Shown here piece by piece: positions 15,371 to 17,349 of a stretch of 28,775 nucleotides of DNA. This stretch comes from a virus (Duplodnaviria; Heunggongvirae; Uroviricota; Caudoviricetes). The position numbers were made by a program, and so were the translations under genes. Below the pieces are notes generated by a model that was given only the letters and a program-made list of their open reading frames with translations, was not told the origin of the DNA and did no database searches. Within the stretch, counting starts at the first letter, position 1. Each line of letters begins with the position of its first letter. The stretch lies in IMG/VR virus record IMGVR_UViG_2778261515_000018, positions 1 through 28,775 of that record, one strand, 5' to 3'.

Positions 15371-15555
15371 ACGCCACAATTCAAACGATACCAGAGCTTC
15401 TTATCCAGACACGAGGCAATCAGACCGAAGTGGCAAGGATGCTTTCCTGCGCAAGAGGAACAGTGCTCAAGTACAACCGAGACAGCAAAGGCGAGCGTCA
15501 CGTAATAGTTAACGGCGTCCTGATGGTCAAACAGGGCAAGAGGGGAAGACGATGA
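15367..15555 (+). CDS. ninH: NinH-like small DNA-binding protein
   Basis: MNATIQTIPELLIQTRGNQTEVARMLSCARGTVLKYNRD... resembles lambda NinH as recalled. Confidence 0.7.
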   Translation: MNATIQTIPELLIQTRGNQTEVARMLSCARGTVLKYNRDSKGERHVIVNGVLMVKQGKRGRR

Positions 15556-16040
15556 GCATAAGAGAACTAAACCTCACCAAAGAACAGCACGATTGGCTGA
15601 ATGGCTGGCTTGAACTGTGGGGCGCATGGGTTTATTCAGGCCGCCTGGAAAAGCGCATGAGCAGCGTAATAGCGAAGTTCATGGAGAGCGTAGAGCCGGG
15701 AAGAGTTATGACAAGGCCAATGTGTAATGATGATGATGGAATGTTGATTTCTCAGGTCGTCGATTCCGTCATGTACATTGACAAGAAAGCCTTTGGAATC
15801 CTCCTCAGCTACTACGCTCATGGCTCTTCCAAGCACGCCATTGCATCTTACTATCATCGCGTCGCAAGACCTCGCAAGATGTTATGCCGTGGCGGCGGGC
15901 GCATTCAAAAACCATCGCTCGCAACCTGTCGACGGGAAGTTGACGAAATCCTTAATGCCTCGTTGTTTATGATTTACCCGGTTCTGGATAGTGCGTTTAA
16001 AAATCGGAAACGTGTAGAGAAAATTAAACATGTAGCATAG
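15552..16040 (+). CDS. Q: Late-gene antiterminator Q (non-lambda Q family, 162 aa)
   Basis: Last gene before tR' and the lysis cassette; WGAW...PMCNDDDGMLISQVV...YYAHG pattern consistent with the phage 82/21-type Q family as recalled. Confidence 0.65.
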   Translation: MSIRELNLTKEQHDWLNGWLELWGAWVYSGRLEKRMSSVIAKFMESVEPGRVMTRPMCNDDDGMLISQVVDSVMYIDKKAFGILLSYYAHGSSKHAIASYYHRVARPRKMLCRGGGRIQKPSLATCRREVDEILNASLFMIYPVLDSAFKNRKRVEKIKHVA

Positions 16041-16046
16041 AACGTG

Positions 16047-16081
16047 TTGACATCATTGAGCAAATGAGCAACACTATTGGC
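16047..16081 (+). promoter_or_regulatory. Candidate late promoter pR' / qut region
   Basis: TTGACA at 16047..16052 just downstream of Q and upstream of the terminator; no convincing -10 at canonical spacing, so position is approximate. Confidence 0.25.
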
Positions 16082-16085
16082 ATAA

Positions 16086-16132
16086 GCTGCCGTTAGTGAC
16101 TCTTAAGTTGCAACGGTGGCTTTTTTTGTTTG
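16086..16132 (+). terminator. tR' late terminator
   Basis: Stem GCUGCCGUU / AACGGUGGC (with G-U pairs), then UUUUUUUGUUUG; downstream sequence CACAACAGGTAAGAGCATTGAGTCG matches the lambda region just past tR' as recalled. Confidence 0.65.
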
Positions 16133-16410
16133 CACAACAGGTAAGAGCATTGAGTCGATAATCGTGAAGAGTCGGCGAGCCTGGTTAGCCAGTGCTCTTT
16201 CCGTTGTGGTGAATGCACAGGCTGATGTGCAAGGGCAAGAATCTTTCGCTGGATTCGGTGTGGCCACGTAGCCCGCTGTAGGCAGTTGCAGCAAACCGGA
16301 GATCAGCACCGGTCGCCACAATCCAAACTGAGCGTAGCCACTGGCTATCCTGAATTCATCAGTGATAGTTATGCTGCGGCCTTCTACACATGATCTTCGT
16401 GAAAGCGGGT

Positions 16411-16446
16411 GGCATGAGGTTGTTAGCGCAACCTCATGCCGTTTTG
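16411..16446 (+). other. Perfect 12-bp stem-loop in the late leader upstream of S
   Basis: GGCATGAGGTTG TTAGCG CAACCTCATGCC followed by GTTTTG; the equivalent lambda position has a hairpin with a different but still complementary stem as recalled. Confidence 0.5.
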
Positions 16447-16565
16447 CCCGTGCATATCGGTCACGAACAAATCTGATTACTAAACACAGTAGCCTGGATT
16501 TGTTCTATCAGTAATCGACCTTATTCCTAATTAAATAGAGCAAATCCCCTTATTGGGGGTAAGAC

Positions 16566-16889
16566 ATGAAGATGCCAGAAAAACATGACCTGTTAGCCGC
16601 CATTCTCGCGGCAAAGGAACAAGGCATCGGGGCAATCCTTGCGTTTGCAATGGCGTACCTTCGCGGCAGATATAATGGCGGTGCGTTTACAAAAACAGTA
16701 ATCGACGCAACGATGTGCGCCATTATCGCCTGGTTCATTCGTGACCTTCTCGACTTCGCCGGACTAAGTAGCAATCTCGCTTATATAACGAGCGTGTTCA
16801 TCGGCTACATCGGTACTGACTCGATTGGTTCGCTTATCAAACGCTTCGCTGCTAAAAAAGCCGGAGTAGAAGATGGTGGAAATCAATAA
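16566..16889 (+). CDS. S: Holin S (class I, dual-start S107/S105)
   Basis: [64 protein letters not shown]... essentially identical to lambda S as recalled. Confidence 0.95.
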
Positions 16890-17349
16890 TCAACGTAAGG
16901 CGTTCCTCGATATGCTGGCGTGGTCAGAGGGAACAGATAACGGACGACAGAAAACCAGAAATCACGGTTATGACGTCATTGTTGGCGGAGAGCTATTCAC
17001 TGATTACTCCGATCACCCTCGCAAACTTGTCACGCTAAACCCCAAACTCAAATCAACAGCAGCCGGACGTTACCAGCTTCTTTCCCGTTGGTGGGATGCT
17101 TACCGTAAGCAGCTTGGCCTGAAAGACTTCTCTCCCAAAAGCCAGGACGCTGTTGCGCTGCAGCAGATTAAGGAGCGTGGCGCTTTGCCGATGATTGATC
17201 GCGGTGATATCCGTCAGGCTATCGACCGTTGCAGCAATATATGGGCTTCACTGCCGGGCGCTGGTTATGGCCAGTTCGAGCATAAGGCTGACAGCCTGAT
17301 TGCAAAATTCAAAGAGGCTGGCGGAACGGTCAGAGAGATTGAGGTATGA
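16873..17349 (+). CDS. R: Endolysin R (lytic transglycosylase)
   Basis: 158 aa, matches lambda R as recalled ([51 protein letters not shown]...). Confidence 0.95.

Follow-up and report, generated by a model that had tools for sequence, protein, structure and literature searches.

The late region of the window and its leader hairpin

The window analyzed here is a 28,775-nucleotide (nt) stretch of viral DNA (positions 1 to 28,775 of the IMG/VR record IMGVR_UViG_2778261515_000018; Caudoviricetes), and the element under study is a hairpin in the untranslated leader that precedes its holin gene S. The late region displays the lambdoid order of a Q-type gene, a pR'-like promoter, the terminator tR', the leader and the genes S, R and Rz (Table 1). 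The hairpin, which we term P2, lies above two further helices, P1 and P0. A first-pass annotation made from the sequence alone had reported a perfect 12-base-pair (bp) hairpin at 16411-16446, and this is indeed present: the arms at 16411-16440 are complementary at 12/12 positions, enclose a 6-nt loop and are followed by GTTTTG at 16441-16446. Folded as RNA, P2 has a local minimum free energy (MFE) of -31.5 kcal/mol (z = -6.3), a stability equaled by 0/200 shuffles. It is the sole perfect stem of at least 10 bp with a 3-10 nt loop in the 28.8-kilobase (kb) window, and 100 mononucleotide shuffles of the window yield a mean of 0.28 stems of at least 10 bp and none of at least 12 bp.

Table 1. Features of the late region and holin leader in the window.
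Feature	Positions	Strand	Remarks
Q-type antiterminator gene	15552-16040		late region of the window
tR'-type terminator	16085-16127	+	terminator of the short pR' transcript; homologous stretch annotated Tr' in HK75
Untranslated holin-leader module	16395-16565	+	comprises P0-P1-P2, second hairpin, alternative pairing and sdi-like hairpin
P0 5' strand	16396-16402	+	TTCGTGA; from folds and RNAalifold; left edge of the mosaic module
P1 5' strand	16405-16410	+	GCGGGT; pairs with 16446-16451 in MFE folds
P2 5' arm	16411-16422	+	GGCATGAGGTTG; most variable arm among relatives (positions 5, 9, 10, 11)
P2 loop	16423-16428	+	TTAGCG; exact reverse complement of the usual CGCTAA, i.e., inverted loop
P2 3' arm	16429-16440	+	CAACCTCATGCC; relatives have C or A opposite position 5
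GUUUU	16441-16445	+	would be the U-tract if P2 is an intrinsic terminator; bulges on the 3' side between P1 and P2 in read-through RNA
P1 3' strand	16446-16451	+	GCCCGT; pairs with 16405-16410
P0 3' strand	16461-16467	+	TCACGAA; from folds and RNAalifold; deleted in mEp235
Second leader hairpin	16465-16505	+	GAACAAATC pairs with GATTTGTTC
Alternative pairing	16496-16508 with 16535-16547	+	GGATTTGTTCTAT can pair with ATAGAGCAAATCC
sdi-like hairpin	16546-16559	+	close upstream of the start codon; covariation seen between leader types (CCCC/GGGG, CCCCT/AGGGG, CCTCAC/GTGAGG)
Holin gene S	16566-16889	+	107 amino acids, dual start MKM; annotated homologues

In lambda (NC_001416), the counterpart of P2 is GGCAGGAGGTCG-CGCTAA-CAACCTCCTGCC, found at the same place, 155 nt upstream of S. 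The first-pass annotation had given its stem as GGCAGGAGG/CCTCCTGCC and as fully complementary; these 9-mers are correct, but the lambda stem has 10 bp, then a C.A mismatch at position 11 and then one more pair, and does not form a full 12 bp. The hairpins of the window and lambda differ at 9/30 bases, and these differences include a feature that the annotation had overlooked, namely an inverted loop: the TTAGCG of the window is a 6/6 reverse complement of CGCTAA (the loop of lambda and also of JEP4), with its length unchanged. Immediately downstream, at 16441-16570, the two leaders are identical at 131/132 positions, the sole difference being an alignment end gap. The leader had been described as nearly identical to lambda, which is true of this segment and of 16133-16194 (63/63) and 16326-16410 (78/86), but not of 16195-16325 (54/131) or of the Q/pR'/tR' region, which is of a different type from that of lambda. 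The lambda 5' arm additionally contains a perfect Shine-Dalgarno motif, AGGAGGT (equivalent to 16419-16425 of the window), which is sequestered by the anti-Shine-Dalgarno-like ACCTCCT of the 3' arm; relatives often carry substitutions in this arm, and several of these, at positions 5, 8 and 9, make the motif weaker.

Free assortment at stem position 5

At stem position 5, a G:C pair in lambda corresponds to a T:A pair in the window, and the first-pass annotation had read such complementary differences as covariation that would imply selection for an RNA or DNA structure upstream of S. On that account, the 5' arm (G to T) and the 3' arm (C to A) would each have undergone a point substitution, independently of one another, and selection for a fully paired stem would have kept both. 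We compared 122 homologous hairpins from IMG/VR, the window included, which were anchored on the downstream flank only and thus unconstrained in the stem. Position 5 is occupied by G, A or T, its partner is C or A, and all six combinations are present (A/C 37, G/C 31, G/A 23, T/C 18, A/A 10 and T/A 3). Watson-Crick pairs are not enriched, with 34/122 observed versus about 44 expected under independence by our own arithmetic; the position is paired in 28% of the homologues and unpaired in the remaining 88 (72%). The same pair (columns 20-42) is unpaired in 54 of the 84 unique sequences of a second alignment. Perfect stems, that of the window among them, number only 4/122 (about 2-3%). Together with positions 10 and 11, the position 5 columns are the most variable sites of an otherwise almost invariant module, and the P2 stems have a mean pi of 0.087 versus about 0.03 in the flanks.

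The argument for compensation at position 5 thus fails because the stem is disrupted there in most relatives, an outcome that the annotation itself had named as speaking against its claim. The presence of a Watson-Crick pair in both the window and lambda would fit the selective account, as would the fact that other P2 pairs do change on both sides between diverged leader types. Nevertheless, the T:A allele is tied to the inversion of a 6-nt loop, which is not producible by point mutation, and the nine differences from lambda are clustered in 30 nt beside about 130 identical bases. Alongside the free assortment and the rarity of perfect stems, these points make two separately selected substitutions a very unlikely origin of the pair. 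Effects of restriction or Dcm/Vsr sites at position 5 were considered and set aside, as was the idea that ORF 16362-16514 encodes a protein.

Loop inversion and probable template switching

The hairpin of the window is probably a rare allele that arose through DNA-level template switching within a quasi-palindrome, a mechanism that we infer from several sequence patterns. Loop flips are recurrent in the family: CGCTAA and TTAGCG occur in type A leaders, to which the window belongs, CGTCAA and TTGACG occur in type B leaders and TTGGCG is found in the HK633 type. A scan of IMG/VR for inverted loops, using an asymmetric pattern that left the position-5 partner and the whole 5' arm free, recovered the inverted type A loop on five contigs, all of which have perfect 12-bp stems (four with T:A, as in the window, and one with G:C). 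The inverted loop is also present in about 14/1,039 Escherichia coli records, and the four that we inspected are all Watson-Crick at position 5. Normal-loop alleles are perfect in about 2/120 of an unbiased sample; therefore, the chance that two independent flips both fell on perfect stems is less than about 0.001. Copying of one arm from the common T/C or G/A allele predicts exactly the two inverted alleles seen as its products. Reciprocal inversion of the common mismatched alleles would instead leave mismatches, and no such inverted allele is seen in type A. Moreover, normal-loop T/C, G/A and T/A alleles exist on flanks that are 0-1 differences away from the inverted alleles over 480 nt and thus provide candidate parents on the same flanking haplotype. 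The changes relative to lambda form a single cluster (9/30 beside 131/132).

We envisage that the nascent strand at replication would jump to the complementary arm, copy the loop and arm in reverse complement and then jump back. Such a switch would invert the loop (CGCTAA to TTAGCG) and leave the arms exactly complementary. Either the switch wrote the T:A at position 5 as well, with one of the common mismatched alleles (T/C or G/A) as parent, or a rarer perfect allele already had this pair and was subsequently flipped; under both scenarios, the G:C to T:A double change can be explained without selection on RNA pairing. "Compensatory mutation plus loop inversion" is a described class of pattern, and complete loop inversions have been held to suggest that at least some template-switch events use an interstrand mechanism (Monttinen and Loytynoja 2022, PMC8794818).

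Several observations weigh against this origin, or at least against the version in which the switch itself created the pair. A nearest-flank analysis did not resolve the parent allele, as the flanks are too conserved. The 36 perfect alleles in IMG/VR comprise 5 inverted and 31 normal-loop copies (24 T:A and 7 G:C), and hence perfect T:A stems with a normal loop outnumber those with an inverted one, 24 versus 4; the flip may just need a pre-existing perfect palindrome and not create the pair. The five inverted T:A copies may also stem from one event, which would leave only about two independent type A events. Finally, inversion does not always perfect the stem, as the type B flip left two stem mismatches in place. 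The type B loci concerned (GGCAAGAGACTG-TTGACG-CAGCCTCCTGCC) keep A.C mismatches at stem positions 5 and 9 across the CGTCAA/TTGACG flip; therefore, the inversion there spans at most the loop and 3 bp on each side.

A conserved three-tier stem-loop

P2 is the apical tip of a conserved three-tier stem-loop of about 72 nt (16396-16467) with which the leader module begins and in which a GUUUU bulge separates P2 from P1. The same P0-P1-P2 arrangement is obtained in MFE folds of the window (z = -6.35) and of lambda (z = -4.1). We counted pairs over 84 unique sequences in an alignment of 16405-16451 with the structure specified by hand, which contains three clades only and therefore few independent events. 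Across the whole structure, 90.7% of cells are paired, versus 87.6% in shuffled alignments (0/500 reach the observed value) and 30-53% when the structure is slid. P1 is 98.6% paired, and its pairs form series that pass through wobble states (C-G 38/U-A 39/U-G 6; G-C 44/G.U 34/A-U 6; U.G 52/C-G 30). P2 is 86.7% paired on the + strand and displays double changes at columns 26-37 (U-A 39/C-G 34) and 25-38 (G-C 44/A-U 7). These two pairs vary in the diverged P22-like and HK620/HK633-type leaders: the type B leader of the Salmonella P22-like phages reads GGCAAGAGACTG-CGCTAA-CAGCCTC[C/T]TGCC, followed by TGATTTGCTCATGC, and the HK620/HK633-type (type H) leader reads GGCATGTATTG-TTGGCG-CAATCCACGCC. 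Both types have UGAUUU in place of the GUUUU tail; in type A, the tail GTTTTGCCCGTGCATATCGGTC is invariant in 110/121 copies collected by means of an independent anchor. Iterated BLAST searches from the HK633-type leader recovered no further leader types.

RNAalifold, run on the 84-sequence alignment, proposed only P0 and missed P1 and P2 owing to mismatches and flipped loops. P0 itself is invariant and was partly used as an anchor; hence, covariation is not assessable there. The homology boundary, at about 16395, coincides with the first base of P0. The viable phage mEp235 has a natural 71-nt deletion (646-650; window 16451-16521) that removes the second hairpin and the P0 3' strand, and it keeps P2 and most of P1, losing one P1 base. 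P0 is thus dispensable because its 3' strand is deleted in this viable phage.

The broader claim of the first-pass annotation, that of a conserved structure upstream of S, is supported by evidence other than the pair on which it had been built: the covariation and 98.6% pairing of P1 and the two other P2 pairs point to a conserved structure, and position 5 is not part of that evidence. One could alternatively regard P2 as an apical palindrome without a function of its own, whose arms are kept similar by repeated template-switch homogenization and whose covariation is mutational. Consistent with this, P2 is the fastest-varying part of the module, its mismatches occur at high frequency, its loop orientation is free and template switching has been argued to be capable of maintaining stems (PMC8794818). 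Nonetheless, 9-11 of the 11-12 pairs (Watson-Crick or G.U) survive across leader types that are about 25-30% diverged elsewhere, P2 is kept in the mEp235 deletion variant and the adjacent P1 has RNA-type conservation, which together render a functionless palindrome rather improbable.

A possible terminator or processing element

As to function, we tentatively suggest that P2 and the four U residues behind it might act as a weak back-up intrinsic terminator or pause site before the holin gene, which would be overridden by Q-modified RNA polymerase. Such a terminator would halt Q-independent read-through, and likewise RNAs made from leader cargo (e.g., tRNA genes), ahead of the lethal holin gene; termination is predicted to be stronger at the perfect allele of the window than at the mismatched alleles that are usual. 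When transcription reads through, P1 would close over the U-tract of the RNA to give a long irregular helix. With 12 bp, 7 G-C pairs and a 6-nt loop (or 4 nt where closed by U.G and G-C pairs), P2 has the stem of an intrinsic terminator (GC-rich, 5-14 bp, loop of 3-8 nt), and in phage MG40 the homologous hairpin carries a terminator label in the CPT annotation. The window has an approximate d-score of +11 and lambda one of +1, values that are indicative only, as modern energies were used in the old formula. Further, leader cargo, where present (in SPN9CC, tRNA-Asn and tRNA-Thr), lies on one side of the element and the holin gene on the other. In O276 and HK75, the annotated terminators are tR' and were rejected as evidence for P2. 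Tandem terminators in the lambda late leader were reportedly described by Luk and Szybalski in 1983, and one of them may coincide with lambda 45031-45066.

Against a terminator stands the tail: a simple terminator scan did not flag the site, since G-UUUU-G offers 4 T in 8 versus the 5 required, and the U run is broken (TGATCTG) in five type B variants. The approximate d-scores of most relatives are not terminator-like, at -6 to -19 for the common type A alleles, -34 to -47 for type B and -58 for HK633. Most mismatches in P2 are of the A.C type when read on the + strand and would be G.U on the - strand, a pattern that is unexpected for a selected + strand RNA helix. The best-conserved helix, P1, has its 3' strand beyond the U-tract and would be needless to a terminated RNA; that particular point favors a function within the read-through mRNA, for instance in its stability or in processing of the RNase III type.

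This role is the main rival to the terminator function, and we deem it unlikely, if clearly less so than the other alternatives. It shares the template-switch origin and takes P0-P1-P2 as a processing or stability element of the read-through late mRNA, e.g., an RNase III-type substrate, in which an irregular helix of about 25 bp with a 3'-side bulge would be cleaved, either separating the leader cargo from the lysis mRNA or setting the 5' end and translation rate of S. The dimensions of the element (7 bp in P0, 6 bp in P1 and 12 bp in P2, with a 5-nt bulge and an asymmetric internal loop of 2 nt on the 5' side and 9 nt on the 3' side) are compatible with, and not diagnostic of, an RNase III site. 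Such a role would account for P1 being the best-conserved helix despite lying beyond the U-tract, and for its G.U intermediates on the + strand; folding predicts the three-tier helix for lambda as well as for the window, and the helix is conserved across leader types, whereas terminator-likeness is not. The title of a paper listed in PMC7547250 (Daniels et al. 1988) places RNase III sites in the lambda late transcript. Cleavage at P0-P1-P2 itself is putative, and mEp235 lacks the P0 3' strand and one P1 base. The tolerance of A.C mismatches and loop flips in P2 further implies that the tip need not be recognized by its sequence. As for the published sites, they may lie just downstream of tR' instead.

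Taken as a whole, the explanation that we favor, with moderate confidence, is that of a template-switched P2 tip on a conserved stem-loop with a back-up terminator role.

Strand asymmetry and a possible leftward reading

P1 and P2 differ in the strand on which their variation is tolerated. P1 falls from 98.6% paired on the + strand to 72.1% on the - strand, and its variation is wobble-compatible on the + strand only; P2 rises from 86.7% on the + strand to 97.0% on the - strand. The variation of P2 consists mainly of G to A and T to C changes in the 5' arm, which are the source of its A.C mismatches on the + strand. By hand count, the uncompensated transition sites comprise nine of the A.C type and two of the G.U type in P2, and zero and four, respectively, in P1 (Fisher p ~0.01). 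Candidate causes are a leftward transcript, template switching that runs in one direction from the G-rich 5' arm as the donor, and selection against the Shine-Dalgarno-like AGGAGGT.

A strong leftward (- strand) terminator-like hairpin abuts the 5' edge of the element in the upstream contexts of HK97 (about 617-645) and the P22-like phages (e.g., Salmonella phage SF6, 680-704); it has an A-run on one side only and a covarying stem. No - strand promoter-like site was found in the window at 15500-17200 or in SF6 at 380-1250. One may ask whether P2 acts on the opposite strand (in a leftward RNA or in single-stranded DNA) or whether, as a double-stranded palindrome, it serves as a protein site. 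The higher pairing of P2 on the - strand, the abutting leftward hairpin and the roughly symmetric distribution of variable positions over both arms would agree with this. Yet the two regions searched lack a leftward promoter-like site, P1 is clearly + specific, 51/122 copies are mismatched at position 5 on both strands and the - strand tail after P2 has no U run, leaving action on the opposite strand hardly credible.

A wider proposal, which we regard as speculative and improbable, would combine several of these elements: P0-P1-P2 and the rest of the roughly 170-nt module would constitute an uncharacterized cis-regulatory leader RNA that sets holin dosage in lambda-, HK97- and P22-type phages, with the palindrome kept mainly by recurrent template-switch "self-repair" in place of purifying selection, and with the strand asymmetry and the abutting terminator pointing to a leftward antisense transcript.

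Distribution and genomic context of the leader module

The leader behaves as a mosaic unit. Many phage records share only 16395-16570 with the window in BLAST searches, and the module of about 170 nt is common, at more than 90% identity, to lambda, HK97 and P22-like phages; it also precedes the holin gene in HK620. We found it in at least two upstream contexts and with two holin families. Among 5,426 complete E. coli genomes, about 1,030-1,110 (about 20%) carry it, and it is never annotated there. Searches against Rfam 15 gave no match at gathering thresholds for the window and none up to E = 10 for 16000-16600. ARAGORN predicted no tRNA in the window, and the element thus does not show the identity of a tRNA or tRNA remnant.

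In Salmonella phage SPN9CC, genes for tRNA-Asn and tRNA-Thr (348-501) occupy the interval between tR', which is the same as that of the window, and the hairpin element, 78 nt upstream of the latter. In the window and lambda, the sequence at this place is unrelated and contains no tRNA. A further segment of the window, 16133-16233, gives matches of 40-100 nt at 90-97% identity, on either strand, to many unrelated phages, including Klebsiella siphoviruses, 158-kb Klebsiella myoviruses, Shigella phage DS8 and T1-like phages, where it is mostly unannotated. A 25-mer of the lambda leader also occurs in Pseudomonas, Bacillota, Flavobacterium, actinomycete and metagenome-derived (MAG) assemblies; the contigs concerned measure about 3.5 kb or 48.4 kb, a sign of contamination with lambda control DNA. 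Such contamination made up almost all matches among the assemblies and told nothing about the diversity of the leader.

Relation to known systems

Template-switch or quasi-palindrome mutation is a known phenomenon, and a terminator or processing hairpin in a leader is a known kind of function. What the window adds is a clean natural case of template-switch loop flipping in one of the best-studied genomes, and a conserved, unannotated multi-hairpin leader before the lambda-type lysis cassette in about one-fifth of complete E. coli genomes. It also offers a caution for scans that take two complementary stem differences as proof of a selected RNA structure: across the homologous hairpins the two sites assort freely, and the flipped loop points to mutation that writes complementarity in one step. 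The leader may have a role in keeping the lethal holin gene silent or correctly dosed.

The quasipalindrome model of mutation is reportedly due to Ripley, and Lovett is said to have described quasi-palindrome mutation at a hotspot in E. coli thyA. As in the template-switch mutations of PMC8794818, the change cluster in the window is confined to a hairpin at a natural imperfect inverted repeat, the loop has become its exact reverse complement with its length unchanged and the arms were made or kept exactly complementary. Unlike those cases, which come from ribosomal RNA and microRNA phylogenies, the flip is here a segregating polymorphism in a phage leader over hundreds of prophage copies; the event may have run in either direction and from more than one candidate parent, and the type B flip occurred without stem repair.

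With the lambda tR' (6S) and late-leader terminators, the element has in common that its hairpin is GC-rich, has a run of U behind it and lies within the Q-controlled leader, between pR' and S; it would likewise be overridden by Q-modified polymerase. It differs in having four U residues only, in the mismatches of most natural alleles and in a score that is not conserved in types B and H. The RNase III hairpins of phages (e.g., T7 R1.1, the lambda N leader and sib) resemble it in being long irregular helices with an asymmetric internal loop on a polycistronic phage transcript, upstream of a tightly dosed gene. The helices here are short by comparison (7, 6 and 12 bp), with sizeable loops between them, and any cleavage is putative.

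Within the same leader module, the "sdi" translational control hairpin of lambda S, which according to Blasi, Young and co-workers reportedly controls the choice between two S starts, is also a conserved hairpin that covaries between leader types. It lies at 16546-16559, beside the start codons and about 105 nt downstream of P2, which is a separate element.

A likeness by function and position is presented by PasA and PasC, prophage small RNAs found directly upstream of the holin-lysozyme operon in enteropathogenic and enterohemorrhagic E. coli (Zhu, Shabalina, Storz 2026, bioRxiv 10.64898/2026.05.13.724894). They differ in lying in late regions of the Shiga toxin (Stx) type beside a sialate esterase gene, and Stx phages matched just the Q part of our query in BLAST searches against phage records; in the window, the element is followed by 125 nt more of leader before the holin gene. 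What they share with it is a structured RNA element, ended by a terminator that is putative in the window, just upstream of a lambdoid holin gene; PasA and PasC are processed from a longer transcript.

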